This document shows, one piece after another, positions 4,752 through 26,138 of a stretch of DNA of 32,000 nt. This DNA comes from Clostridia bacterium (lineage in GTDB: Bacteria > Bacillota > Clostridia > TANB77 > CAG-465): positions 18,455 through 50,454 of the forward strand of contig JAFWCU010000035.1 of assembly GCA_017534305.1 (NCBI GenBank), written 5' to 3'. Numbering within the stretch: position 1 is the first letter of the stretch; each line of letters starts with the position of its first letter. The position numbers and the translations under genes are program-made. The notes beneath the pieces are model-generated. The model saw only the letters and a list, made by a program, of their open reading frames with translations, was not told the DNA's origin and did no database searches.

Positions 4752-5750
4752 GTGAAAGAAGACAAAGCATATATATTAAGAAAAGCGCTTACTGTGTTAA
4801 GCCTAGTACTAATATTTGCTACTGCTGGATTACTAGCAATTACAACCCAACTTAAGACAATTACATTTAACTACTATGGTAATGTTAAATCTATTAAAAC
4901 ATTAGCAAGTTCTGTAGATGCATTTTTACTACAAAACAATATTTCATTAAATGAAAGTGCAGTAATAGAACCTCAAGCTGGAGCAAGAATAACAAACGGA
5001 ATGACAATCACTGTTTCAACTACAAGAGCAGACGCTATTGATATTGAAAAGATAAGAGAGTCATATGCACCAGTTGTTGCTAGTGTAAAAGAAGAAATAC
5101 AAGCAATACCATTTGAAGAGGAAAAGGTTGATAACGCAGATAGAGAATCTGGAGAAACTGAGGTATTACAAGAAGGTGTTGAAGGCTCAAAATCTATTAG
5201 TTATATAGTTAAAACTTCAAACAACCAAGTAATACAAAAAAATGAAATTAAAGCTGAAGTAATACAAGAAGCACAAAATAGAGTAGTAGAAGTAGGAACT
5301 AAAGTTTCTAGAAGTAGCTTAGTATCATCTATATATACTACACCAGTTGATGGTGGATTCATTAGTTATAATATAGATTTTCCAGAAGAGTACCAACACT
5401 ATGCATATAATCTTTGCCAAAGATATGGAATAGACTATTCATTATTTATTGCAATAATGTTTGTTGAAAGTAGATTCCAACCAAATGCAAGTAACGGTGG
5501 ACTATATATTGGACTATGCCAAGTTGCTGCAACTCATTTACCAAACTTAAGTTCAAAACTTGGTATCTCAGATTTATATGATCCTTACGATAATATGACT
5601 GCAGGTGCTTATCTTCTATCATATTATATAAATGCAAATGGTAGCGTTGAATCTGGTCTTGCTTCATATGGTGGTGGTGCATCATACATAAACTTAGCAC
5701 TAAGCACTAGAGAAAGACTGATTGCAAACGGTGGTTTATCTGATATATAA
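4752..5750 (+). CDS. cell-wall protein with G5 domain and C-terminal lytic transglycosylase (SLT) domain, YabE-like position
   Basis: GTG start with an AGGAGG RBS and an N-terminal TM. G5-like stretch (IPFEEEKVDNADRESGETEVLQEGVEGSKSISYIV...VVEVGTK). SLT-like AIMFVESRFQPNA...GLCQV. Sits upstream of rsmA, like B. subtilis yabE. Confidence 0.75.
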   Translation: MKEDKAYILRKALTVLSLVLIFATAGLLAITTQLKTITFNYYGNVKSIKTLASSVDAFLLQNNISLNESAVIEPQAGARITNGMTITVSTTRADAIDIEKIRESYAPVVASVKEEIQAIPFEEEKVDNADRESGETEVLQEGVEGSKSISYIVKTSNNQVIQKNEIKAEVIQEAQNRVVEVGTKVSRSSLVSSIYTTPVDGGFISYNIDFPEEYQHYAYNLCQRYGIDYSLFIAIMFVESRFQPNASNGGLYIGLCQVAATHLPNLSSKLGISDLYDPYDNMTAGAYLLSYYINANGSVESGLASYGGGASYINLALSTRERLIANGGLSDI

Positions 5751-10186: not shown

Positions 10187-10798
10187 TTATTCTTTAGAAA
10201 TTACTTTCCTTTGCCAACTTTTCTTTCCACATTCTGGGCATTTCATATATCTTGTTCTACCAAAATGCATAGACCACAATACACTTGAAAATGTTGGAAC
10301 ATATTTATGATGACAGTTATTACATTCATAGTATCCAGCAGTTTGTTCAATTCTTATTGCAAATGGTATGGCAATTGCAAATTGTACAAAACCAATAAGT
10401 ATAAGTAAAACTCTTAGCCAATCTACCATTTCAATAAATGATGCTATAAATACTAAAACTAAAAATGTAATTGAAGCACCAAATCCAATAACATATTCTA
10501 GTGCAAGCATTCTTTTTGCTGTTTCTTCTTGCTCTTTTTTCATAGCAAGTATAATTTCATCATATTTTTTATCATTTTCGTTCATATTAATCATCTCCCC
10601 ATAAAATAATTCATTAATTCCTATACCAAGTATTTCACAAAGCTCTATCATAATAGAAGCGTCTGGTAGTGATTTTCCAGTTTCCCATTTAGATATCGCT
10701 CTATCTGAAATATTTAGTTTTTCTGCAAGTTCTAGTTGTGTAAGACCAACTTCTTTTCTACGAGCAGCAATAAATCTTCCAATTTTGATTTGATCCAT
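10187..10798 (-). CDS. membrane-tethered XRE-family HTH regulator with C-terminal zinc ribbon
   Basis: HTH_XRE core (IGRFIAARRKEVGLTQLELAEKLNISDRAISKWETGKSLPD), two TM segments, and CNNC...CPEC. I chose the ATG at 10798 (MDQIK) because GGAGG lies upstream; the track start is a TTG. Confidence 0.8.
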   Translation of the reverse strand: MDQIKIGRFIAARRKEVGLTQLELAEKLNISDRAISKWETGKSLPDASIMIELCEILGIGINELFYGEMINMNENDKKYDEIILAMKKEQEETAKRMLALEYVIGFGASITFLVLVFIASFIEMVDWLRVLLILIGFVQFAIAIPFAIRIEQTAGYYECNNCHHKYVPTFSSVLWSMHFGRTRYMKCPECGKKSWQRKVISKE

Positions 10799-10891
10799 AA
10801 TACTTTCCTCCTTCAATTATATTTTAATGAATTATTATATAAATTAACACGAACTGTTGGTTGAGTTTCTTCAATTATACCATTTTAAGCC

Positions 10892-10923
10892 AAAAAAAGA
10901 TATATAGAAAAATCTATATATCT
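10892..10923 (-). terminator. rho-independent terminator of the Fic gene
   Basis: Perfect 10-bp stem AGATATATAG (10898-10907) / CTATATATCT (10914-10923). The minus-strand T-run is the + strand A-run 10892-10898. The hairpin includes the Fic stop codon. Confidence 0.75.
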
Positions 10924-11924
10924 AAATGTGTTTTATAATATCGTTGGTTTTTACTCTTAGGCTTATCTGGAATTGTCATCTGTACATATCCATCTCTAAT
11001 AGCACAATTTAAATATTTATTTCTAAGAGTATCTTTGTGTTTAACATCTAATTTGAACATTATTTCATTTGCAGTCATAGGTTCTTCTTCCATATTTTCT
11101 AATAGTCTTTTTACATTAACGCTTGCTTCTGTATATACAAGTTTTGCAATAGTTTCTAAATCTTTTAAAGTTGTATTAATCATATCTAACATAAATTCTA
11201 CAAACACAGTAGATTCGCCATCAATATGAGCTTTAGCTATTGCATCATAATACTCTTTTTGATGTTTTTTTATCTGATTTTCAATAGGTACATATTCAAA
11301 TATATCTCTGTAATTGCATAAAATAGCGTTTTGCCAAAATCTAGCTGTACGGCCATTACCATCTTGAAAAGGATGTATAAAAACAAATTCATAGTGAAAG
11401 ATACAAGACATTATAATAGGATTAATATTATTTTTTTCTCTTTTCATCCAATCAAATAAATCTGAGATTAAATATGGTACTTGCTGTGGTGGAGGACAAA
11501 TAAATATACATTTATCTCCAGCAAAAACACCTTCGTTACCAGTTCTATACTTTCCAGCAAGTGGAGCCAAATCTTTTTCTATGATTCCATGAATCTTTAA
11601 TAAGTCTTTTTCTGAATATGGTTTTACTTTAGTTAATTGTTCATATGCAAGTTTAATATTTTGAACTTCTTTAATTTCATTTTCAGGTCCAACAACTTCT
11701 TTACCATCAATAATATCTCTAACTTGACCTTTAGAAAGCGTATTTCCTTCTATTGCAAGTGAAGCATGAATAGAAGTTATTTGAGTATTTCTTCTAAGTT
11801 TAGGTTCTTTATCTAATCTAGTATAATGTTTGTATTCTCCAACTTTTTCCATAATTGAAGATAAAGTTTCTAACATTTTATTTGTAATTGTAAATGGTGG
11901 AGTATAATTATCCATAAAAGTCAC
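10914..11924 (-). CDS. Fic family protein (class II, autoinhibited AMPylase type) with C-terminal wHTH-like tail
   Basis: Fic motif HPFQDGNGRTARFW. An N-terminal inhibitory-helix motif SLAIEGN matches (S/T)xxxE(G/N). Confidence 0.85.
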   Translation of the reverse strand: MTFMDNYTPPFTITNKMLETLSSIMEKVGEYKHYTRLDKEPKLRRNTQITSIHASLAIEGNTLSKGQVRDIIDGKEVVGPENEIKEVQNIKLAYEQLTKVKPYSEKDLLKIHGIIEKDLAPLAGKYRTGNEGVFAGDKCIFICPPPQQVPYLISDLFDWMKREKNNINPIIMSCIFHYEFVFIHPFQDGNGRTARFWQNAILCNYRDIFEYVPIENQIKKHQKEYYDAIAKAHIDGESTVFVEFMLDMINTTLKDLETIAKLVYTEASVNVKRLLENMEEEPMTANEIMFKLDVKHKDTLRNKYLNCAIRDGYVQMTIPDKPKSKNQRYYKTHLDI

Positions 11925-12087: not shown

Positions 12088-12163
12088 TGGAGCTGAAACT
12101 CAGATTCGAACTGAGGACCTACGGTTTACAAGACCGTTGCTCTACCAACTGAGCTATTCCAGC
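12088..12163 (-). tRNA. tRNA-Thr (anticodon UGU)
   Basis: Reverse complement GCTGGAATAGCTCAGTTGGTAGAGCAACGGTCTTGTAAACCGTAGGTCCTCAGTTCGAATCTGAGTTTCAGCTCCA. It folds as a cloverleaf with anticodon loop CTTGTAA and an encoded CCA. Confidence 0.93.
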
Positions 12164-12177
12164 ATATATACTTTTTA

Positions 12178-12252
12178 TGGTGACCCGTAGGAGAGTCGAA
12201 CTCCTCACTCCGCCGTGAAAGGGCGATGTCTTAACCGATTGACCAACGGGCC
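12178..12252 (-). tRNA. tRNA-Glu (anticodon UUC)
   Basis: Reverse complement GGCCCGTTGGTCAATCGGTTAAGACATCGCCCTTTCACGGCGGAGTGAGGAGTTCGACTCTCCTACGGGTCACCA. Anticodon loop CTTTCAC, encoded CCA. Confidence 0.93.
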
Positions 12253-12258
12253 CCATGA

Positions 12259-12334
12259 TGGTGAGCCATCGCAGATTCGAACTGCGGACAACTTGATTAA
12301 AAGTCAAGTGCTCTGCCAACTGAGCTAATGGCCC
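12259..12334 (-). tRNA. tRNA-Lys (anticodon UUU)
   Basis: Reverse complement GGGCCATTAGCTCAGTTGGCAGAGCACTTGACTTTTAATCAAGTTGTCCGCAGTTCGAATCTGCGATGGCTCACCA. Anticodon loop CTTTTAA, encoded CCA. Confidence 0.93.
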
Positions 12335-12406: not shown

Positions 12407-12551
12407 TAGATTTTATTTAAAAAAGCGAAAAAAATTGAAATTTGCAAATGAATTCAATTATTCTACAAATTATTATTTACAAAAGCTCTAGTTTTATAAC
12501 ATATCAGTCAAAGTATTGCAAGCTAAAAACAAGGGTGCTACTATATTTTAC

Positions 12552-12565
12552 GTGATTCAAATATT
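12552..12565. repeat. left arm of a 14-bp perfect inverted repeat (GTGATTCAAATATT)
   Basis: Exact reverse complement of 12746-12759. Confidence 0.9.
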
Positions 12566-12581
12566 TTCATTCTAATTATTT

Positions 12582-12637
12582 TTATCTATAATTTTTTATC
12601 TAAATTTTTTTATCTAAATTTTTTTATCTATTATTTA
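12582..12637. repeat. iteron-like tandem array, four 14-bp units starting TTATCTA
   Basis: TTATCTA occurs at 12582, 12596, 12610 and 12624, an exact 14-bp period. Units 2 and 3 are identical (TTATCTAAATTTTT). Confidence 0.9.
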
Positions 12638-12745
12638 AATTCTTAAACGTATTATCATATAATCTTAGTTTGTTTTTTAGTGAGGAAGGAAAAATAAAAT
12701 AACATTAATAGATACGTTTGCAACTTTAGTTTAGCAACAAGTTTT

Positions 12746-12759
12746 AATATTTGAATCAC
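12746..12759. repeat. right arm of the 14-bp perfect inverted repeat (AATATTTGAATCAC)
   Basis: Exact reverse complement of 12552-12565. It ends 26 nt before the next start codon. Confidence 0.9.
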
Positions 12760-12784
12760 ATTACTATATATAAGGAGGAGGTAT

Positions 12785-13126
12785 ATGAAATTAAACAAAT
12801 TATTGTGCATAATGTGTATAACCTTGTGCCTTTTTATAACATCATGTGTCTTTGCTGCAAATAATAATACTACAACAGGATCTACTCCAAGTTTAGTAAC
12901 TAAAATTAATTCTGCATTTACTAGAATTCAAGGCTACCTTAAAAAAATTTCAACCCCAATTGCCGGAGTTTGTATAGCAAGTGGAATAATTATTAGGAAA
13001 TTGAGCTTTGGAGATGAAAAGAAAATGATTACAGGAAAGAGAATAATTACTAATTCTGTAGTAGGATATGCTGCAATTCAACTGTTAGATTTAATAATTA
13101 AATTTATAGAAGCAGTAATAAAATAG
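12785..13126 (+). CDS. small secreted/lipoprotein-like protein with two C-terminal hydrophobic helices (VirB2/TrbC-like topology; function unassigned)
   Basis: Strong RBS AAGGAGGAGG. Signal peptide with a possible lipobox ITSC (Cys21) or an SPase I site VFA-A. Hydrophobic helices TPIAGVCIASGIII and NSVVGYAAIQLLDLII are separated by a charged loop. Confidence 0.6.
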   Translation: MKLNKLLCIMCITLCLFITSCVFAANNNTTTGSTPSLVTKINSAFTRIQGYLKKISTPIAGVCIASGIIIRKLSFGDEKKMITGKRIITNSVVGYAAIQLLDLIIKFIEAVIK

Positions 13127-13127
13127 T

Positions 13128-13922
13128 ATGGAAGAATATATAAAAAGTTTAAATGAAGTCTTAAATAGGCTAAGTATATCGTTAAGAAGCAATATTTATT
13201 CTGTAATAGATAAGATAGCAAATATAGATGTTTCTCTTTTTGACAAAGAACCACTAAAAAGTATATGCAATACTAATTTACTATATATAGTATTAACACT
13301 AATATGGGCAATAATAATTGCTATTGCAGTAAAATATGTTTTAAATCTATATAGTGACATAGCAATCAGTAAAATATACTTTTATATTTTAAAATGTGTT
13401 GTAATAGGCATCATTAGTATAAATAGTTATAGTATTTGTAAAGAAATTATTAGGATAAATAATCTTCTTACACATATAATAGCTTCATCTTTAGAAGAAA
13501 CAATAGATTCATCAATTGAGTATAAATTTTTAGATGATAACATAGATTCGATAGATGAACTTATATCTTCAAAAGATAAACTTAGTTTAAATGGAGTAAA
13601 AGATGGTATAGTTTGTTTTTATATGATATCCCTTTTAGTATTATTATCTCTAAGATATGTAATAGTAATATCATGCATAATTATCTCACCAGTAATGTGT
13701 ATATTATTACTTGTGCCTAACTTAAATAATTATTTTTATACATATATAAAAGTATTCATATACAATCTATTACTTCAAAACATAAACATACTTATACTAT
13801 ATATACCAATATCTGCAAGAACAGAAAATAGTGTTTTCTTACCTATCATAATAGGTAGCATTGTACTTATATATAATGTAAATAAAAAGGCTGGAAGTAT
13901 TATTTATGAGAAAAAGAATTAA
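13128..13922 (+). CDS. polytopic membrane protein, 5-6 TM (VirB6/TrbL-like topology; function unassigned)
   Basis: The ATG lies 1 nt after the upstream stop. There are several long hydrophobic segments and no soluble-domain motif. Confidence 0.6.
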   Translation: MEEYIKSLNEVLNRLSISLRSNIYSVIDKIANIDVSLFDKEPLKSICNTNLLYIVLTLIWAIIIAIAVKYVLNLYSDIAISKIYFYILKCVVIGIISINSYSICKEIIRINNLLTHIIASSLEETIDSSIEYKFLDDNIDSIDELISSKDKLSLNGVKDGIVCFYMISLLVLLSLRYVIVISCIIISPVMCILLLVPNLNNYFYTYIKVFIYNLLLQNINILILYIPISARTENSVFLPIIIGSIVLIYNVNKKAGSIIYEKKN

Positions 13923-14262
13923 TAAACAACAAATATTTAATTTTTATAATAAAACACACAAGTGGCATGGCTTAATAGATTATAAATCATTAACGATAAT
14001 AGCTGTGTACGTATTTTTATGTGGCTATCTAGTGATCAACATGAATATTACAAATACGCTAAAGTTATATGTAATTATTATATTAGTTTTACCAGTAATA
14101 ATATTTACACTTTTAAATATTAATGAAGATTGTGTTGTTGAAAAACTTGTTACAATTGTCTGTTATTTACTATCTAAAAGGGTGTATACAAAGTCAATAG
14201 ATTTCAAGGAAAAGAAGACTATCTACAAAAAGAATGCGGAAAATAGTCGTATTGAAAAATAG
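13906..14262 (+). CDS. small two-TM protein (TcpE/VirB3-like size and topology; function unassigned)
   Basis: Overlaps the upstream gene by 17 nt. 118 aa: a basic aromatic N-terminus, two TM helices, and a basic C-terminal tail. Confidence 0.55.
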   Translation: MRKRINKQQIFNFYNKTHKWHGLIDYKSLTIIAVYVFLCGYLVINMNITNTLKLYVIIILVLPVIIFTLLNINEDCVVEKLVTIVCYLLSKRVYTKSIDFKEKKTIYKKNAENSRIEK

Positions 14263-14280
14263 TCGAATTAGTGATATAAT
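14252..14280 (+). promoter_or_regulatory. near-consensus sigma-A promoter for the loader operon
   Basis: TTGAAA (14252-14257), 17-nt spacer with TGa, TATAAT (14275-14280). It overlaps the end of the preceding gene. Confidence 0.65.
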
Positions 14281-14307
14281 GACATCCAATTAAGAAGGAG
14301 TATATAT

Positions 14308-15279
14308 ATGAAATTTGATAGCCAAAAGAAAAAGTTAGAACTAGGTGATACACTTGTTCCAGACTTATTCATATTAAACAATATGAAAGCTCTTGGAAAA
14401 AATGATTTACATGTGTATCTATACCTATTATATTTACTAAAGAATAATGTAGAAATAGATTCAGAGTTACTAATGAAAAATTTGGAGTTAAGTGCAGATG
14501 AGCTAAAAATAAGTCTAGATGTACTTACAGCAGAAGGTTTAATTCAAAAAACAACAAGAAGTGCTGTAGTTGTAGACTTAAAAGAAACAGAAATAAATAA
14601 ACAATATACTCCTAAATTTGATAGTAAAGTTAGCAGATATGAAAATGTAATAGACGAAAAAAGAAAAGCGTGCGTTGATGCTATTTGTGAGAGCTTCTTT
14701 AATGGATACATGTCATTTAGTTGGCATACAGACATAGGAAATCTATTCAATATGTATGGATTTGCAGAAGAAGTAATGATAGCATTATTCCAATACTGTC
14801 AAGAACGTAAGGCATTAAATAGAAAATACCTATTTGCTGTTGCAGAAACTTGGCATAATGGAGGAGTACATACTTTTGAAGAACTTGAAGCTTTCTTAGA
14901 TAACTATGAAAAATTCAATAAAATTAAACAAAGAATTTGCAAAGCTTTAGGAATTGTAGGAAGAAACCTTTCAAAATACGAAGAAGAATTTGTAAAGAAA
15001 TGGATTGAAGAATATAACTATGATTTTGATATTATAGAAGAAGGATTAAAAAGAAGTACATCTACAACTAATCCAACAATAAAATACATTGATGCAATAA
15101 TAACTAGCTGGTATAAAAAAGGATACAAAACAGTAGATGAAATTATCGAGGCAGAAAGTCCAAAAACTGTTGAAGATAAACCAGTAAGAAAAATCCCATC
15201 TGCTATAGCTAAAAAGAAAAGTTATCAAAATTATACACAAAGAGATTATGACGATTACAACGAATTCTATGATGAATAA
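14308..15279 (+). CDS. DnaD-domain replication initiation / helicase-loading protein (B. subtilis DnaB-type architecture)
   Basis: N-terminal wHTH-like region plus two DnaD/DnaB_2-like repeats (...MIALFQYCQERKALNRKYLFAVAETWHNGGVHTFEELEAFL and ...IIEEGLKRSTSTTNPTIKYIDAIITSWYKKGYKTVDEI). Confidence 0.75.
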   Translation: MKFDSQKKKLELGDTLVPDLFILNNMKALGKNDLHVYLYLLYLLKNNVEIDSELLMKNLELSADELKISLDVLTAEGLIQKTTRSAVVVDLKETEINKQYTPKFDSKVSRYENVIDEKRKACVDAICESFFNGYMSFSWHTDIGNLFNMYGFAEEVMIALFQYCQERKALNRKYLFAVAETWHNGGVHTFEELEAFLDNYEKFNKIKQRICKALGIVGRNLSKYEEEFVKKWIEEYNYDFDIIEEGLKRSTSTTNPTIKYIDAIITSWYKKGYKTVDEIIEAESPKTVEDKPVRKIPSAIAKKKSYQNYTQRDYDDYNEFYDE

Positions 15280-15296: not shown

Positions 15297-16304
15297 ATGC
15301 AAAGCGAAGCGTATAGAAAAATTGAAGCAGAGTATGATTACAAAAGACAACAAGCACAAAAAGATGCAAAAACTTTTAAAGAAAACGTATACGATGAACA
15401 TCCACAACTTGCTCAAATAGAAGCAGACATTGCAAAAGTTGCAATTGAATCTATGAAAGCTAGAATAAACTCAGATGATAATACAAGAGCAAAAGAACAA
15501 GAGAAACTTGAAAAGAAAATAGAGGAACTTCAAGTAGAATATGATAAAGCTTTAAAAAGAATAGGATTAACACTTGAAGATTTTGAACCAAAATATGAAT
15601 GCGAAAAATGCAAAGATACAGGAATGTATAAAGATGCAATGTGTAGTTGCTTCAAGCAAGCATTAATTAATGAATCATTCAAACAGTCAAACATGCTAAA
15701 AATAAAAGATGAAAACTTCGAGACTTTTGATTTTGGTTACTATTCTTCAAATCCAGACAAGGAAAAATATGGAATAGATAAGTCACCATTAGAAAAAATG
15801 GATGCAATTAGAAAACAAGCTTATGATTTTTCACATAAGTTAGATGACCCAGAACAAAAGAACCTATTGTTTAGTGGAACAACAGGACTTGGTAAAACAT
15901 TCCTTGCAAATTGTATTGCAAATGAAGCAATAAAACAAGGAAAATCTGTTATATATCAAACAGCACCAATTCTTTTGGATAAAATGGTAGACTATCAATT
16001 TAAATATAATAAAACAGAAAATGATAGAGAAGAATATCAAAAAATATTTGAAGTTGATTTATTGATTATAGATGATCTAGGAACAGAAACTATGAATTCT
16101 GCAAAATTTAGCGAATTATTTAATATAATTAATACTAGACTTCTAAAAGGTAAAAAGATGGTTATATCTACAAATCTAACCACACAAGAAATTAAAAATC
16201 TATATGAAGAAAGAATATTCTCAAGACTTGTAGGAGATTTTTCGATTTTAAGATTTATAGGTGAAGATATTAGAGTATTAAAAAAGAAGATAAATAAAGC
16301 ATAA
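15297..16304 (+). CDS. dnaI: helicase loader ATPase DnaI/DnaC family
   Basis: Cys cluster CEKCKDTG...CSC, Walker A GTTGLGKT, Walker B LLIIDDLG. Confidence 0.85.
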   Translation: MQSEAYRKIEAEYDYKRQQAQKDAKTFKENVYDEHPQLAQIEADIAKVAIESMKARINSDDNTRAKEQEKLEKKIEELQVEYDKALKRIGLTLEDFEPKYECEKCKDTGMYKDAMCSCFKQALINESFKQSNMLKIKDENFETFDFGYYSSNPDKEKYGIDKSPLEKMDAIRKQAYDFSHKLDDPEQKNLLFSGTTGLGKTFLANCIANEAIKQGKSVIYQTAPILLDKMVDYQFKYNKTENDREEYQKIFEVDLLIIDDLGTETMNSAKFSELFNIINTRLLKGKKMVISTNLTTQEIKNLYEERIFSRLVGDFSILRFIGEDIRVLKKKINKA

Positions 16305-16338
16305 AAGAAAGAGTACCGAATAATTGGTACTCTTTTTT
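16304..16338. terminator. bidirectional rho-independent terminator
   Basis: Stem AGAGTACC (16310-16317) / GGTACTCT (16326-16333), with an A-rich run upstream and a T-run downstream. It lies between convergent genes. Confidence 0.75.
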
Positions 16339-17254
16339 ATCCATTAAATTCTTCTCTTTTTCTTTCAATTTTTAGTAATTGTTCATATAGTTTTTCTTCT
16401 CTTTCAGATATATCTTCAGGAAGATCAATGTGAACTTTTAGATTTAAGTCTCCACGATTTCCATCTTCAGTGACATATCCTTTGTTTGGTACAGTTACTA
16501 TTTCACCATCTCTTAAACGCTTTGGTAGAGAAACAAATAATTTTTCATCCATAACTTGAAGCTTGTACTTTCCACCAAGAGCAGCAACAGCTGGAGTAAT
16601 ATTAATATCTTTGTTAAAATCTGTTCCTTCAATTTTAAACTCTGGATCATCTAGTAATTTAACATGTATAATTAAATCTCCGTTCTTACCACCATTTTTC
16701 CCTGGATTACCAAGAGCAGCAAGTCTAATCTTGTCTCCGTTTTTTATTCCAACTGGTACTTTAACAGAAAATGTTTTCATTCCAGTTTTGTGTGCACGTA
16801 TTGCTATTTTCTTTTCTGCCCCAAAGAAACCTTCTTCAAGAGTTACATCTAAATGAGTAACTATATCTGAACCTTTAATTGGTTTTTTCTTATCATCTAT
16901 ATTCTCATTATTTGAATTATTATCGCCTTTTCTAAATCCTAAAATTTGGTTTAATATATCGTTAAATACATTTGCACCAGATTTGAATTCATATTTTACA
17001 TCTTGTAGTCCTGATTCTATATTTGCAAATCCATATCCATATCTTGCAACTTGTCTATCATATTTTCTTTTTTTCTCTGGATCCATAAGGATCGCATAAG
17101 CTTCATTTATATCTTTAAACTTTTCTTCAGCATCTTTGCTTTTATTTTTATCTGGATGATATTCTTTAGCAAGTCTTCTAAAGTTAAGTTTTATATCTTG
17201 ATCAGAACTTTTTCTGTTGACTTCCAATATTGCGTAATAGTTTTTTTGTTTCAT
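16337..17254 (-). CDS. J-domain co-chaperone, CbpA-like (no zinc-finger domain)
   Basis: J domain YYAILEVNRKSS...EYHPDKNK with HPD. A DnaJ C-terminal beta domain is present. There are no CxxCxGxG repeats. Confidence 0.8.
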   Translation of the reverse strand: MKQKNYYAILEVNRKSSDQDIKLNFRRLAKEYHPDKNKSKDAEEKFKDINEAYAILMDPEKKRKYDRQVARYGYGFANIESGLQDVKYEFKSGANVFNDILNQILGFRKGDNNSNNENIDDKKKPIKGSDIVTHLDVTLEEGFFGAEKKIAIRAHKTGMKTFSVKVPVGIKNGDKIRLAALGNPGKNGGKNGDLIIHVKLLDDPEFKIEGTDFNKDINITPAVAALGGKYKLQVMDEKLFVSLPKRLRDGEIVTVPNKGYVTEDGNRGDLNLKVHIDLPEDISEREEKLYEQLLKIERKREEFNG

Positions 17255-17330
17255 ATAATACCCCTTTAAAAACTAATTCTAACTTGATTTTTATTATATC
17301 ATAGATAATCTAAAATTCAAGGATATTCGC

Positions 17331-17359
17331 TTGATTTTTTAATTTTTTTATAATATAAT
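17331..17359 (+). promoter_or_regulatory. candidate sigma-A promoter of gyrA
   Basis: TTGATT (17331-17336), 17-nt spacer, TATAAT (17354-17359). Confidence 0.5.
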
Positions 17360-17392
17360 GAGGGAGTAAAAGCAAATGGAGGTATGTATATA

Positions 17393-19870
17393 ATGGACAT
17401 AAATGATGAAAACTTTTTATCGGCGCAAAAAATTGTTCCTGTAAAAATCGAAGATGAAATGCAAAAATCATATATAGACTATGCAATGAGCGTTATTATC
17501 TCCCGTGCCTTACCAGATGTAAGAGATGGTTTAAAACCAGTTCATAGAAGAATTCTTTATACAATGTATGAAGACAAACTATGGCCAAACGTTCCTTACA
17601 GAAAATGTGCAAACGTTGTTGGTGACGCAATGGGTAGATACCATCCACATGGTGACTCATCAATATATGATGCATTAGTACGTTTAGCACAAAATTTTTC
17701 ACTAAGGTATCCTCTAGTTGACGGACATGGTAACTTTGGATCTATGGATAATGATCCTCCAGCCGCAATGAGATATACTGAGTGTAAACTTCAAAAAGTT
17801 GCACTCGAAATGCTTGAGGATTTAGACAAAGAAACAGTAGACCTTATGCCAAACTATGATGACAGATTAAAAGAACCTACTGTTTTACCAGCAAAACTAC
17901 CATATCTATTAGTTAATGGTGCATATGGTATTGCCGTTGGTATGGCATCTAATATTCCACCACACAACTTAGGCGAAGTAGTAGATGGTACAATTGCTCA
18001 ATTAGATAATCCAGAGATTACTAATGAAGAATTAATGAAATATATCAAAGGACCAGACTTCCCAACATCAGGTATTATTGTTGGAAAAGAAGGTATCAAA
18101 GATGCATATACAACTGGTCGTGGTAAAGTAACAATAAGAGCAAAAACAGAAATTGAAGAAGACTCTCGTGGTAGATTTAAAATTATCGTTACAGAAATAC
18201 CATACCAAGTAAATAAAGCAGCACTTGTTGAAAGTATTGCAAAATTAGTTCAAGCTAAAACAATCGAAGGAATTTCAGACTTAAGAGATGAAACAGATAG
18301 AGAAACAGGATTAAGCTGTGGAGTAAGAATTGTTATAGAACTAAAAAGAGATGCAAATCCAAACGTAGTTCTAAATCAATTATTCAAACATACACAACTA
18401 CAAAATTCTCAATCTATGTTAATGCTTGCTATTGTAGATGGTGTACCTAAAGTACTACAACTTAGAGAAATACTAGGAGAATACATCAAACACAGAGAAA
18501 ATGTTGTAATTAGAAGAACTGAGTTCGACTTAAAACAAGCAGAAGCAAGAATCCATATCTTAGAAGGATTAAAAATTGCTATAGATAACATCGATAGAGT
18601 TATCCAAGTAATTAGAAATTCATATGATGATGCTAAAGAAAACTTAATGAAAGAGTTTGAACTATCTGAAATTCAAGCTCAAGCAATCCTAGATATGCAA
18701 TTAAGAAGACTACAAGGATTACAAAGAGAAAAAATTGAAGAAGAGTTAAATGAACTTCTAGCTTTAGCTAAACACTTAAGAGAAATCTTAGGCTCTATGG
18801 AACTTGTTAAAGGTATCATTAGAGATGAACTTATAGAATTAAAACAAAAATATGGTGATGAAAGAAAAACAGCTATCACTCATGGTGAAGGTGAAATAGA
18901 TGTTGAAGATTTGATCAAAGAAGAAAACAATGTTGTTACTTTAACACACTTTGGATATATCAAGAGAATTTCTCTAGATACATACAGAGCTCAAAGACGT
19001 GGTGGTAAAGGCCTAACAGGAATGAATACTCGTGAGGATGACTTTGTTGAACAAATCTTTGTTACATCAACTCATAATAGCTTAATGTTCTTTACTAATA
19101 CTGGTAAAGTATTTAGACTTAAAACATATGAATTACCAGAAGCAGGAAGAACAGCCAAAGGTACAGCTATCGTTAACCTACTACAACTTAACCAAGGTGA
19201 AAAAGTTACTGCAGTTATGCCAGTAGAAGACTTTAACGATGATACAAAATATGTACTTATGGCTACAGCTAATGGTCTTATCAAGAAGACTGCACTTTCA
19301 GAATATGGAAATATCAGAAAGACAGGTATTCAAGCTATTACTCTTAAAGATGACGATGAGTTAATAGATGTAAGACTTACAGATGGATCAAATGATGTAA
19401 TCATGGTAACACATGGTGGACAATCTATTAGATTCAAAGAAGAAGAAGTAAGACCAGTAGGTAGAACTGCAATGGGTGTTAAAGGTATCGAACTTGCAAA
19501 AGACGACAAAGTAGTTGGAATGGAACCATTAAAAGAAGATAATGGATATGTTTTAGCAATTACTGAAAACGGATTTGGTAAGAGATCTGAAATGGATGAT
19601 TACAGATGCCAAGGAAGAGCAGGAAAAGGTGTTCTAACATACAAGATAACATCTAAGACTGGTAACATCGTTGGAGTTAAACTTGTAAATGATGATGACG
19701 AAGTAATGCTTGTAACAGATACTGGAATAATCATTAGATTAAATGTAAATGATATTAGCATTCTTGGTAGAAATACACAAGGTGTAACTCTAATGAGAAC
19801 ATCTGATGGTGGAAAAGTAGTAAATATTGCTAAAGTTCCAAATGAAGATGAAGAAGTTGCAGATGAATAA
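17393..19870 (+). CDS. gyrA: DNA gyrase subunit A
   Basis: [16 protein letters not shown], catalytic AAMRYTE, and the GyrA box QRRGGKG. I chose the ATG at 17393 (MDIND), 10 nt after GGAGG; the ATG at 17384 is only 1 nt from the RBS. Confidence 0.95.
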
Positions 19871-22441: not shown

Positions 22442-23011
22442 ATGGATAGTTTATTTAAAATGAACAAGTTTGAGGTTATTGACTTACCAGGTATGAACAC
22501 ATTAGCTTTTTTAGTTGAAAGAGATTATGATGCGTATACTCAAGGTTATGCATATTTATCTCTAGAAAAGCTAAGAAGTGTAGAGGTAAGAGAAGAAAAC
22601 CAAGTAAAAAAAGTATTTAATGTGCTTGTTGATGACCCAGAAGATGAAGACGATATAGTTCTTCTAACACTTACAGATAGCAAAGCATTCTTAAGTACAG
22701 GAATCCTAGATAAAAATGGATTTACAGTAGAAAATAGTAATGTTTCTCTAACATATGGCTCAATATATAATACAGAAGGTATTGAGTACAGAGATGTTGC
22801 TTACACACCAGACTTAAGAAGAAACTTCTCAATTATTGATTCTCAAACAGGAGAAGAAGTTAAACCTTCTCTATATAGAGACGATAATGGTGAGGTCAGA
22901 GGTAGATGCAAAATTATGCCTAATAGACCATACATAGTATTAGAAGTATCAATGGAAGATGAAGACATTAGAAAATTAAAGCTTGATGAAGAAGCAGATG
23001 AAATGATTTAG
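22442..23011 (+). CDS. acidic hypothetical protein (189 aa)
   Basis: RBS GAGGGG. Rich in D/E (DDPEDEDD, MEDEDIRKLKLDEEADEMI). No family recognised. Confidence 0.6.
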   Translation: MDSLFKMNKFEVIDLPGMNTLAFLVERDYDAYTQGYAYLSLEKLRSVEVREENQVKKVFNVLVDDPEDEDDIVLLTLTDSKAFLSTGILDKNGFTVENSNVSLTYGSIYNTEGIEYRDVAYTPDLRRNFSIIDSQTGEEVKPSLYRDDNGEVRGRCKIMPNRPYIVLEVSMEDEDIRKLKLDEEADEMI

Positions 23012-23225: not shown

Positions 23226-25334
23226 ATGAGAGATTTTTTTGATGATTTTAAACAAAAAGCTCCAATACTTATAATTATATCACTTATACTATCTATTGTT
23301 TTTGGTGGAGCATTAACAAAATCAATTGTAGATGCAAAAGCTGCTGGCAGTACTTCAATGATTGCTACAATATTTTCTACTTTGTTAGGAAATATAACAA
23401 GTTTCCAATTTTTCTCTGGAATATTTGCAGACTTTTTAACATTCTTAAAAATTACAGGAGTTATATTTGTTGCTGTATTTGGTATTTATCTATATGCTAA
23501 ATATAAAGCTAGTCAAGTAGGCGAATATGAAGGAAAAGAAAATGGTTCTAGCCAATGGGGTAAAGGAGCAGAAGACTTTAAGCACGCATCAGATGGTAAA
23601 GAAATACTAAACAAAAAAGAAGGATTTATACTAAGTAAAACACATTACTTAGGAACAGATTTAAGAAAAGTTGGTATCAATAAAAACATTCTTGTTGTCG
23701 GTGGTTCTGGTTCTGGTAAAACTGCATGTTATATTAAACCAAATATCATGCAATGTTTAGGATCATATATTATCACTGACCCTAAAGGAGAATTATATAA
23801 AGAGACATCACAATTTTTAAAATCTGAAGGCTATGATGTTAAAGCATTTAACCTTGTAAACCCAACATATAGTGATTTCTATAACCCAATATACAATATA
23901 TGTTCAGACCAAGACGTAGATACATTAGCTCACATCTTAGTTACAGGAGCAAATAAAGAAGGTGGCGGCGGAGATGACCCATTCTGGGATAACACTGCAA
24001 AAATGTTAATTTCTGCTACTATTTACTATGTTTTATCTGTTCTACCATTAGAACAACAAAACATAGGAAGCTGTCTAAACATTATTCGTCAAGGTGGTGC
24101 AGATAGTTCAATATTTGAAAAATTATTTGTTGATGATTTAATGCCAGAACATCCTGGTAGAATTCAATATGAATCATTTAAAACTGCTGCAGATAAAACA
24201 ATGCAATCAATAGTTATTTCATCTATTTCTAAAATGCGTGTTTTTGATATGCCAGCAATTCAAAGAATAACATCATCTAACAGCATTAACTTTAGAGATG
24301 TTGCAAAGAAGAAAACAGTTATATATGTTATAACATCAGCTGCTGAAAGTACATATGATTTTGTATCTACAATGTTCTTTAGCCAAATGTTCTCAATACT
24401 ATATAAACAAGCAGATGACTATGGTTCAAGATTACCAAATCAAGTATATTTCTTACTAGATGAGTTTGCAAACATTGGTCAAATACCAGACTTTCAAAAG
24501 AAGTTATCTACAACTCGTAGTTTAGGTATTTCTATCTCAATTATTGTACAATCACTTGACCAATTAGAAGCATTATACAAAGACTCATATGAAAATATTC
24601 TTGGTAACTGTGATACTCAATTATTACTTGGTACTAACTCACAAAAAACAGCTGAGTATTTCTCAAAGAGTTTAGGACAAACAACAATTAAGATTGAACA
24701 AAAATCTGTTAGCAAAGATAAAGACGAACATAAAAAACAAAGTGTATCTGTAAGTACACAAAGACAAGCAAGAGATCTAATGACTGTTGATGAAATTAGA
24801 CGTATGGATAACAACAAAGAAATTCTTATGGTTAGAGGTCTAAAGCCAATTATGGCAGAAAAAGCTTGGTACTTTAAAGTTCATCCAAAAAGAGATATTA
24901 TCGAATCAATGAAACTTGGAAGTATCAAAGATATGCCAATACCAGAAGAACTTCCATATTCATATTTTGATGTTCAAAAATACTTACAAGACAGAAAAAG
25001 ACGTGCTCAAGAAATTCTTAAAAACAGATCAAAAGATGTTCAAGTGGACACTGGATATTCATCTGCTACTCAAGACAAAAGCAGACCATATGGCACTGTA
25101 GATAAAAATAGAGAAGCAGAAATTGATCATAGACCACTTGCAAATGGAATGGATTCAAATTCATATAATGATTTATATGAAAACAATGACTATAATCCAA
25201 TTGCTGATGCTCAAACAAGTGAAAGCAAAGCACCAAATGAAATAACTCAAGAAGATTATGATCTACAATCTGAACTTGAATCTAAATTTGATAAACTATT
25301 CGGTTCAAGCAGCTCTGCTGTTAATGACGATTAA
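23226..25334 (+). CDS. type IV coupling protein (VirD4/TraG/TraD family ATPase)
   Basis: N-terminal TM helices, Walker A VVGGSGSGKT, ITDPKGELY, Walker B VYFLLDEFANIG, SIIVQSLDQL, and an acidic C-terminal tail. Confidence 0.85.
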   Translation: MRDFFDDFKQKAPILIIISLILSIVFGGALTKSIVDAKAAGSTSMIATIFSTLLGNITSFQFFSGIFADFLTFLKITGVIFVAVFGIYLYAKYKASQVGEYEGKENGSSQWGKGAEDFKHASDGKEILNKKEGFILSKTHYLGTDLRKVGINKNILVVGGSGSGKTACYIKPNIMQCLGSYIITDPKGELYKETSQFLKSEGYDVKAFNLVNPTYSDFYNPIYNICSDQDVDTLAHILVTGANKEGGGGDDPFWDNTAKMLISATIYYVLSVLPLEQQNIGSCLNIIRQGGADSSIFEKLFVDDLMPEHPGRIQYESFKTAADKTMQSIVISSISKMRVFDMPAIQRITSSNSINFRDVAKKKTVIYVITSAAESTYDFVSTMFFSQMFSILYKQADDYGSRLPNQVYFLLDEFANIGQIPDFQKKLSTTRSLGISISIIVQSLDQLEALYKDSYENILGNCDTQLLLGTNSQKTAEYFSKSLGQTTIKIEQKSVSKDKDEHKKQSVSVSTQRQARDLMTVDEIRRMDNNKEILMVRGLKPIMAEKAWYFKVHPKRDIIESMKLGSIKDMPIPEELPYSYFDVQKYLQDRKRRAQEILKNRSKDVQVDTGYSSATQDKSRPYGTVDKNREAEIDHRPLANGMDSNSYNDLYENNDYNPIADAQTSESKAPNEITQEDYDLQSELESKFDKLFGSSSSAVNDD

Positions 25335-25423: not shown

Positions 25424-25445
25424 CTAGGTATATGTGGAGGGGTAT

Positions 25446-26138
25446 ATGAACAAGGAAAAAGGATTAATTGCTATAATAGTAATTATAGTGTCAGTTGTGT
25501 TAACTATTTTTATCGCAATGTGGCTCCTAGATACTACCGGAAAAGTGAATCAAGGGAATTATAGAATAAGCGATATTATCATACAATCTGGCGCTACAGT
25601 AACTGAAGTGCAAGATAATAGTGTTAAAATAGAAAAACTATCTGGTCTATTTTTTGATGTTTCACAAACAAATGAAGTAACTATTTTTGTAGAAGCAAAT
25701 ACAAAAATTGCATCTATGATGCTAGACAATATCAAAATATCAGATCCAGTATTAAAAGGAAAAATGAGCCTTGCTCAAAAAGACTACGAAAAATATGACA
25801 TTACTCAAGATTTAAAATCGTTACCATTATATTTAGAAGAAAAAGATGGTCAATACAAAATATGTCTTGTCATAGATAATGATAAAGTAATTACAGATAA
25901 AAACGTAAGTGATGATAAAGATAGTATTCCATACTCAGGAGAAATATTTAAACTTTGGAATATACCAGTAAGTGACTTAACTTTTGATGTTTCTTTTGAA
26001 CTTATCATTACAGACGAATCAGGAACAAAAGTTAAAACAGAAATTAAACTAAAGATGCCAGCAGAAGAGATGTTAGAGTCAGGAATGTCTATTCTAAAAC
26101 AAGACGCAAGTAAATATTTATTTACTATACAAAAATAA
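25446..26138 (+). CDS. N-terminally membrane-anchored, beta-rich extracytoplasmic protein (function unknown)
   Basis: ATG at 25446, 5 nt after GGAGG; the track start at 25434 is a GTG inside the RBS. Single TM LIAIIVIIVSVVLTIFIAMWLL. Confidence 0.6.
   Translation: MNKEKGLIAIIVIIVSVVLTIFIAMWLLDTTGKVNQGNYRISDIIIQSGATVTEVQDNSVKIEKLSGLFFDVSQTNEVTIFVEANTKIASMMLDNIKISDPVLKGKMSLAQKDYEKYDITQDLKSLPLYLEEKDGQYKICLVIDNDKVITDKNVSDDKDSIPYSGEIFKLWNIPVSDLTFDVSFELIITDESGTKVKTEIKLKMPAEEMLESGMSILKQDASKYLFTIQK

Follow-up and report, generated by a model that had tools for sequence, protein, structure and literature searches.

The stretch of DNA analysed here (the window, 32,000 nucleotides of contig JAFWCU010000035.1 from a Clostridia bacterium) is a low-GC (about 30%) bacterial chromosome region rich in core replication genes (gyrA, dnaX, and recR, presumably origin-proximal to judge from Firmicute genomes), and our subject is a trio of small membrane protein genes within it, here called P1, P2, and P3. 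The trio lies between a divergent tRNA cluster, which forms the upstream boundary of the operon, and the genes for a DnaD-domain protein and a helicase loader, and a gene for a type IV coupling protein (T4CP) is found further downstream:

12088-12334, minus strand, cluster of tRNA-Thr(tgt), tRNA-Glu(ttc), and tRNA-Lys(ttt) genes (ARAGORN)
12785-13126, plus strand, P1, 113 amino acids
13128-13922, plus strand, P2, 264 amino acids
13906-14262, plus strand, P3, 118 amino acids
14308-15279, plus strand, dnaD-domain gene (Pfam DnaB_2)
15297-16304, plus strand, DnaC/DnaI-type helicase loader gene, dnaI (Pfam IstB_IS21; NCBIfam PRK06835, 345 bits against a cut-off of 215)
23226-25334, plus strand, PcfC/VirD4-type T4CP gene (Pfam T4SS-DNA_transf, 285 bits; NCBIfam conju_CD1115, 435 bits against a cut-off of 250)

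The P1 stop codon (TAG, 13124-13126) is followed by a 1-nt gap and the P2 ATG, and the P3 ATG at 13906 lies inside P2, giving an overlap of 17 nt; P1 and dnaD have strong Shine-Dalgarno sequences. GC content falls to 22.7% at 13001-14000, over P2 and the trio, compared with about 30% in the flanks, which fits membrane proteins rich in Ile, Leu, Asn, and Lys. An initial annotation, made from the sequence alone, had compared the three proteins by topology to the VirB2, VirB6, and VirB3 (TcpE) subunits of type IV secretion systems (T4SS). The open reading frame (ORF) coordinates agree with the packing that it described, and hydropathy agrees with its topologies, as does an AlphaFold2 (AF2) model in the case of P1.

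Because the window proteins alone score at or below threshold, orthologues were gathered and each family member was scanned separately against Pfam and NCBIfam (27 members for P1, 46 for P2, and 45 for P3). In each family the recurrent matches are to the T4SS family expected from the position in the operon, the others being singletons or involving at most four members. PF18895 (T4SS_pilin) is matched by 26 of the 27 P1 proteins and PF04956 (TrbC/VirB2) by 23 (best E 7e-9); the window P1 scores just under the respective cut-offs (22.8 bits against 26.6, E 1e-4, and 21.9 bits against 27.9, E 2e-4). P1 has a signal-like segment and a hydrophobic C-terminal helix by hydropathy, and the AF2 model from the family alignment (predicted local distance difference test, pLDDT, 78) has a signal helix, after which residues 37-73 and 78-112 form a helix-loop-helix hairpin. 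In the alignment, the signal peptide ends in a conserved site of the signal-peptidase-I type (V-[YF]-A, followed by A), and the loop motif RKLSFGDE between the helices is invariant. The profile match, signal peptide, two hydrophobic helices, and short charged loop of VirB2/TrbC pilins are thus all present, and we assign P1 with good confidence as a predicted VirB2/TrbC-like T4SS pilin homologue. P1 had also been labeled a possible lipobox protein; we rejected a lipoprotein because the lipobox Cys is not conserved in the family, the signal-peptidase-I site being conserved instead. Remote relatives of P1 form 236 clusters among 1.84 billion representatives, and three of them (P0094, 606 aa; P0120, 583 aa; P0134, 382 aa) have four to seven tandem pilin-like repeats per polypeptide. 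These multi-pilin proteins, of which the P0134 cluster is from Parcubacteria/Andersenbacteria, are fused counterparts of the pilin arrays known from Patescibacteria, in agreement with the PF18895 pilins of the T4SS in that group (PMC12102498). A tblastn search with P1 gave no real match in plasmid and phage collections.

By hydropathy, P2 contains five to six hydrophobic segments, with about 55 hydrophilic residues forming a loop between positions 103 and 155. Homology links the window protein to 59 orthologues (E 1e-19 to 1e-132), and among the 46 family members scanned, 18 match PF04610 (TrbL/VirB6; best E 5.7e-7), each of the 13 other families matched being a singleton. It is through these orthologues that a VirB6/TrbL-like channel subunit is recognized at the locus, and with good confidence we regard P2 as a putative polytopic TrbL/VirB6-like membrane protein, homologous to this T4SS family.

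P3 consists of a basic, aromatic N-terminus and two transmembrane (TM) segments (residues 28-46 and 54-72, by hydropathy). In Pfam, the family matches PrgI in 10 of 45 members (best E 0.019) and VirB3 in three, which is recurrent but weak; in NCBIfam, 16 members match NF045975 VirB4_plasma over its first 115 aa (best E 1.3e-4), a membrane region presumed to be a VirB3-like segment fused to VirB4, and four match the SCO6880 family, presumably of conjugation membrane proteins from actinobacteria. P3 is therefore a probable VirB3/PrgI/TcpE-like two-TM subunit, the weakest of the three assignments. The family profiles thus bear out the identities first drawn from topology, P3 least firmly. In a single metagenome-assembled genome (MAG), the conserved Trp codon of the KW-G motif of P3 is TGA (locus L013, 11106-11459), for which nonsense mutation, recoding, or an error in sequencing could account.

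A survey of one genome per GTDB species, with about 20-32 kb of sequence examined per genome, recovered 60 loci, all from MAGs labeled Clostridia bacterium, Clostridiaceae, Bacillota bacterium, or Clostridium sp., including CAG:465, CAG:921, and CAG:1219. P2 is present in 59 of these loci, P3 in 58, dnaD in 56, and dnaI in 55, the missing genes being explained by contig ends except in the rearranged genome L066, where the trio and the dnaD-dnaI block are apart. In nearly all loci that carry dnaD it directly follows P3, and the order tRNA(Thr-Glu-Lys), [T4CP]-P1-P2-P3-dnaD-dnaI is conserved across about 60 species (the bracketed gene being the variable member described below), the block from [T4CP] to dnaI remaining intact while the flanking gyrA and dnaJ invert or move. 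The tRNA cluster is directly upstream of the operon in 33 of 35 loci scanned (it was not found in L043 and L062) and is therefore a fixed landmark that gives no evidence of insertion. On account of this conserved chromosomal neighborhood, we rejected an integrative and conjugative element (ICE) inserted at a tRNA gene, as the initial annotation implied in pointing to the tRNA cluster. There was no match in the plasmid and phage collections and the same chromosomal synteny recurs in 60 species, so that a location on a mobile element is not indicated; no integrase or att repeats were seen. The trio is thus chromosomally fixed and vertically inherited across about 60 species, beside replication genes and not on a mobile element.

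A further gene stands between the tRNAs and P1 in 45 of the 60 species (clade B), overlapping the P1 start. Its product of about 600 aa has N-terminal TM segments and a Walker A motif. The other 15 species, including that of the window (clade A), lack this gene. Six proteins scanned score 38-61 bits for TrwB_AAD_bind (Pfam gathering score 20.5), and five of them pass the gathering score for TraG-D_C, the sixth (L043) reaching 19.9 bits against 22; TraD-type T4CPs are the best NCBIfam matches. A profile of this operon ATPase found no VirB4 or HerA in the PDB and matched the Legionella T4CP DotL weakly (E 0.15), below unrelated CtpB protease matches (E about 0.007). Because the operon ATPase passes the T4CP scores of Pfam, we classify it from its sequence as a highly divergent ATPase of the T4CP family rather than a VirB4. 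A profile search gave no relic of it in the window or in clade-A loci, where only about 440 nt separate the tRNAs from P1. Since the tRNA cluster is a fixed neighbor, its absence from clade A is a clean deletion.

The T4CP gene at 23226-25334 begins 8964 nt downstream of P3, in line with the VirD4-type coupling protein annotated 9 kb away. The protein carries two TM segments at its N-terminus, retains intact Walker A and B motifs, and is similar to H. pylori Cag5/VirD4 in the PDB (E 3e-13), and PcfC of pCF10 matches its orthologues in related loci at about 1e-50. We rejected orthology with the operon ATPase (as a relocated copy), because BLASTP aligns only the Walker A region of the two; by this comparison the window T4CP appears to be a distant paralogue. 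Overlaps of 97.6-99.6% nucleotide identity link T4CP loci to operon loci (L093 to L033, L078 to L048 of CAG:1219, L087 to L039, and L083 to L017), and those of L093/L033 and L078/L048 (98.6-99.6%) place both T4CPs in clade-B species. Thus, clade-B genomes carry two T4CP-family ATPases and clade A only the VirD4-type protein, and the coupling protein of a T4SS is represented by the latter in the window and additionally by the operon T4CP in clade B. The VirD4-type T4CP is present in both clades, about 9-13 kb from the trio, so that co-occurrence of the two holds in both.

Intact trio ORFs persist across divergence down to 51% DnaI identity. Between the window and relatives with trio proteins 66-96% identical, the ratio of nonsynonymous to synonymous substitution rates (dN/dS) is 0.03-0.12 for P1, 0.23-0.25 for P2, and 0.15-0.34 for P3, compared with 0.04-0.08 for dnaD and dnaI; the trio is under purifying selection, with dN/dS far below 1. 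Three features of the flanking sequence are:

12516-12544, plus strand, putative promoter of the trio (TTGCAA, 17 nt, extended -10 TGCTACTAT)
12552-12784, plus strand, structured 5' leader of about 230 nt
14252-14280, plus strand, putative promoter of dnaD-dnaI (TTGAAA, 17 nt, extended -10 TG-n-TATAAT, TGATATAAT), overlapping the P3 stop codon

Both hexamers of the first site are conserved across 12 aligned clade-A intergenic regions. The outer helix of the leader is a 14-nt perfect inverted repeat (12552-12565 pairing with 12746-12759) and encloses a nested helix (12644-12651 with 12712-12719). Pairing is kept in 92.9% of cells when 16 clade-A loci are aligned, with compensatory double changes in 8 of the 22 pairs; none of 500 shuffles reaches this level, and slid controls pair at 26-50%. 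Each of the 16 clade-A loci has the leader and clade B lacks it, with no match in Rfam; it may be a 5'-terminal stabilizer or a new riboregulator of the pilin operon. Within it, at 12583-12632, the window has about four tandem copies of a 14-nt TTTTTATCTAAA-like unit, a repeat that is expanded relative to the window's closest relatives. The site at 14252-14280 matches 11 of 12 consensus positions, with both elements conserved in 12 aligned clade-A loci, and would drive dnaD-dnaI independently of the trio. There is no plus-strand terminator between P3 and dnaD; given the conserved dnaD-dnaI promoter, adjacency to replication genes need not mean obligatory co-transcription.

Other T4SS parts were sought with phmmer queries from pCF10, pCW3, and R388 for VirB4 (PrgJ, TcpF, TrwK), relaxases (PcfG, TcpM, TrwC), VirB8-like proteins (PrgL, TcpC), hydrolases (PrgK, TcpG), and VirB11, using PcfC as a positive control (about 1e-50). 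No homologue of any of these was found in the window or in 94 related loci, and the absence of VirB4, relaxase, VirB8-like protein, and hydrolase noted beside the trio therefore holds locally. The loci accordingly have neither the relaxase of a conjugative element nor the VirB8-like protein and hydrolase of the monoderm MPF-FATA (mating-pair formation) class, and the VirB4/HerA-like ATPase (CedB/TedB) that accompanies CedA and CedA1 in the archaeal Ced/Ted systems has no counterpart here, the ATPases being of T4CP type.

Taken together, these data make it likely that the trio is the membrane core, made up of a VirB2-like pilin, a VirB6-like protein, and a VirB3-like protein, of a reduced T4SS-derived apparatus that is fixed in the chromosome, vertically inherited, and housekeeping-like. 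The T4SS-derived origin linked to the T4CP, which the initial annotation had thought plausible, is borne out by the family profiles, by co-occurrence with the T4CP, and by a second T4CP in the operon of 45 species. In our model, P1 would leave the cytoplasm by the Sec pathway, lose its signal peptide by cleavage after V-[FY]-A, and take up a helical hairpin form in the membrane; P2 and P3 would be the platform on which it then assembles into a short filament or conduit, to which one or two hexameric T4CP ATPases would deliver a substrate across the single membrane. In the window's clade, the remaining VirD4-type T4CP would presumably serve the trio alone. As a relaxase or oriT module is lacking, a cognate plasmid is not the expected substrate. 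By analogy to archaeal Ced/Ted, our tentative guess, made with low confidence, is exchange or uptake of chromosomal DNA; the next-ranked guess is protein delivery or cell-cell contact, as proposed for the T4SS of Patescibacteria.

Several observations weigh against this reading. To our knowledge, VirB4 is the signature ATPase of every described T4SS, and none was found within about 10 kb of either locus or in Pfam scans of large flanking ORFs; the same 10 kb held no VirB8, dedicated hydrolase, or relaxase. The assignments of P2 and P3 are transitive through orthologues: the window P2 has no direct Pfam match, the window P3 has no significant one (PrgI, E 0.6; first 115 residues of the mycoplasma ICE VirB4 NF045975, E 0.0065), and even the best matches of the P3 family are weak (E 1e-4 to 0.02). 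Structure gave little help, since an AF2 model of P2 from six close sequences reached a pLDDT of 42, and the PDB structures recovered by Foldseek with the P1 hairpin were non-specific, all of them helical hairpins of a generic kind (best E 0.2). Some of the system may also be in decay. P2 is frameshifted in three lineages, L006/L007 (L006, 10330-11230), L062 (10240-11110), and L008 (10270-11100; also broken in L009); the insertion of a single nucleotide at ...AGTATGTATACACGG... is common to L006/L007 and L062, and L006 is shifted a second time. Where P2 is frameshifted, the genes for P1, P3, and the operon T4CP are intact, P1 is disrupted nowhere, and the shifts reflect either pseudogenization or programmed frameshifting. 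Moreover, P2 evolves faster in clade A, which lost the operon ATPase: at matched DnaI identity (0.8-0.9), the mean identities of P1, P2, and P3 are 0.70, 0.41, and 0.51 in clade A and 0.80, 0.69, and 0.62 in clade B.

As the main rival explanation, the trio could be a single islet of a complete T4SS scattered over the chromosome, like the rvh system of Rickettsiales or the T4SS of Patescibacteria, with VirB4, the VirB8-like protein, and the hydrolase encoded elsewhere, in which case the system would be a conventional monoderm T4SS plus a pilin. A VirB3-like subunit normally implies a VirB4 partner, only some 20-32 kb per genome enter the comparison, the VirD4-type T4CP is already 9-13 kb from the trio, and T4CP genes are commonly far from virB4 (PMC12102498). 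However, virB4 is almost always directly 3' of virB3 in described systems, a slot occupied here by dnaD in 56 of 60 species; the phmmer searches, in which PcfC scored about 1e-50, gave no VirB4, VirB8, or hydrolase in the window or the 94 related loci; and the ATPase in the operon of most species is a T4CP. We therefore consider a scattered T4SS somewhat unlikely. A different role, which we regard as improbable, is suggested by the neighbors: the trio might have been re-purposed as a membrane scaffold for replication initiation or chromosome handling together with DnaD and DnaI, the T4CP, an FtsK-like DNA pump, being the ancestral fourth member. DnaD and DnaI are known as 'replication initiation and membrane attachment' proteins, the block holds together while gyrA and dnaJ invert or move, no terminator separates P3 from dnaD, and gyrA, dnaX, and recR are in the same region. 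Yet conserved adjacency can be a frozen accident, the two blocks are apart in L066, dnaD-dnaI have their own strongly conserved extended -10 promoter, and the cleavable signal peptide and pilin hairpin of P1 point to an extracytoplasmic role.

Two further explanations seem very improbable to us. If it were a functionless, slowly decaying fossil of an ancient ICE that had inserted beside the tRNA cluster, this would account for the proximity of tRNA genes, the classic ICE target, for the loss of most T4SS genes and of the clade-A operon ATPase, for the P2 frameshifts, and for the dip in GC content; it is difficult to reconcile with ORFs that stay intact over such divergence, with a dN/dS of P1 as low as that of dnaD and dnaI, with the conservation of translational coupling, promoter, and covarying leader, and with the lack of an integrase or att repeats. 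Alternatively, these could be unrelated small membrane proteins (a holin, bacteriocin immunity protein, or transporter accessory proteins) that resemble T4SS subunits in composition and topology alone. All three window proteins are below every curated threshold, and hydrophobic low-complexity helices yield spurious profile matches. Profile searches of the three families against PDB sequences gave nothing meaningful, and comparison by hmmsearch and hhalign with ORFs and annotated T4SS genes of pCF10, pCW3, and R388, each a single sequence, was uninformative, with probabilities below 8% throughout; the best targets for P2 were TcpH and TrwI (VirB6), neither significant, and the P3 family was negative with PrgI, TcpE, and TrwM. 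Against this stand the recurrence in each family of the very T4SS family expected from operon position and the T4CP gene that overlaps P1 in 45 species; of the holin, bacteriocin, and transporter families that had been named as the alternative outcome, none recurs in the scans.

Beyond the trio, dnaD and dnaI are followed by a DnaJ-like gene, gyrA, an AI-2E transporter gene, and two genes without assigned function, and the T4CP gene is followed by dnaX, ybaB, and recR. Further genes of the window are:

4752-5750, gene for a G5-SLT protein
10187-11924, minus strand, genes for a helix-turn-helix (HTH) regulator and a Fic/DOC protein, between the conserved o320 and the tRNA cluster
16337-19870, solitary gyrA with no adjacent gyrB, beside a divergent DnaJ/CbpA-like gene
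22442-23011, plus strand, o189, acidic soluble protein
25434-26138, plus strand, o234, N-terminal TM anchor and ectodomain of about 190 aa

The metagenome scan shows that the order o232-o189-T4CP-o234-dnaX-ybaB-recR is kept in closer relatives. The o189-T4CP pair persists down to 48% T4CP identity, o189 being directly upstream of the VirD4-type T4CP in loci L072-L094, and o234 is the downstream neighbor of the T4CP in many loci; neither o189 nor o234 has a Pfam family or similarity to accessory proteins of pCF10 or pCW3. Where the flanks of T4CP loci differ, they consist of housekeeping genes (VanW, ThrRS, SecDF, PolC, LytR). In L078, from the relative Clostridium sp. CAG:1219, a 6.5-kb insertion between the VirD4-type T4CP and o234 carries a Tad4-like (Thoeris inhibitor) ORF (14148-14513), ThrRS, and a 1120-aa protein without assigned function. 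The pair of gyrA and the DnaJ/CbpA-like gene is kept but inverted in several clade-B genomes. The HTH and Fic/DOC genes are confined to the window and L012, its 96%-identical relative, and look like a species-specific insertion, possibly a toxin-antitoxin-like pair. From Pfam annotation of the syntenic genes, and from what we take to be the usual yabE-ksgA arrangement, the G5-SLT protein is probably a conserved yabE-like neighbor of ksgA and not a T4SS component.

T4SSs normally belong to mobile elements or pathogens. Vertically inherited chromosomal derivatives with functions for the host are found in Rickettsiales (rvh, with genes scattered in islets) and in Helicobacter (ComB, for DNA uptake without a relaxase); unlike the system described here, these are diderm and retain VirB4 and a VirB7-10 core, and ComB has no T4CP whereas one or two are present here. 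Among monoderm systems, the order and sizes of the trio match prgF/prgG, prgH (266 aa, VirB6-like), and prgI (117 aa, VirB3-like) of the Prg/Pcf system of pCF10 (Enterococcus, MPF-FATA), where prgJ (VirB4) comes next, and PcfC is annotated in conju_CD1115, the family of the window T4CP. Unlike the loci here, pCF10 is a plasmid with VirB4 (PrgJ), a hydrolase (PrgK), a VirB8-like protein (PrgL), a relaxase, and adhesins, and P2 and P3 have no direct sequence similarity to PrgH and PrgI. Moreover, monoderm T4SS classes have been described as lacking VirB2 pilins (PMC12102498), in contrast to the VirB2-like P1.

On our best reading, the closest analogues of the apparatus would be the chromosomal T4SS of Patescibacteria and the archaeal Ced/Ted systems. 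The former, which comprises VirB4, PrgI, VirB6, and PF18895 pilins, lacks a relaxase, lies near dnaA in some lineages, and has T4SS genes that were found essential for epibiotic growth (PMC12102498), resembles the trio system in being chromosomal, lineage-wide, and relaxase-less, in its PrgI/VirB3, VirB6, and PF18895-type pilin components, and in an often distant T4CP (PMC12102498). Its occasional proximity to dnaA also has a parallel in the presumably origin-proximal gyrA, dnaX, and recR of the window. It differs in being anchored on VirB4, usually with TrsD, whereas a T4CP-family ATPase heads the operon here and VirB4 was not seen; moreover, the Clostridia host is outside the candidate phyla radiation and has one pilin gene rather than an array. 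The DNA importers Ced and Ted combine a VirB2-like pilin with a VirB6-like pore and a single ATPase (PMC9905601), and they too are domesticated chromosomal derivatives of conjugation machinery, with small two-TM partners and no relaxase (PMC9905601). Their ATPase is VirB4/HerA-like where ours is T4CP-like, their hosts are archaea, and in the absence of sequence similarity the resemblance is one of architecture; DNA import has been demonstrated for Ced and is conjecture for the Clostridia trio. ATPase type, apparent lack of VirB4, host, and the fixed link to dnaD-dnaI thus set the trio system apart from both, and we found no literature on this lineage together with T4SS.

The trio would therefore represent a third, independent chromosomally domesticated T4SS beside the recently described Ced/Ted and Patescibacteria systems, in common uncultured Clostridia of the human and animal gut, and it would combine the unusual traits of a VirB2-like pilin in a monoderm and T4CP-type ATPases with VirB4 not seen locally. 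Clade A, in which the operon ATPase was lost and P2 then evolved faster, is a natural experiment that offers a handle on which of the ATPases serves the pilin-VirB6-VirB3 core. We speculate, though we think it rather unlikely, that this could be a bacterial counterpart of archaeal Ced, that is, a VirB4-less, T4CP-powered pilin/VirB6/VirB3 machine, encoded by a core operon, that exchanges or imports chromosomal DNA or contacts other cells. Such a machine would be the first case of a VirB2-type conjugative-pilus homologue at work in a monoderm Firmicute and the first T4SS derivative in which a coupling-protein paralogue replaces VirB4. Finally, if the system does move DNA, it would constitute an unrecognized route of gene flow in the gut microbiome.

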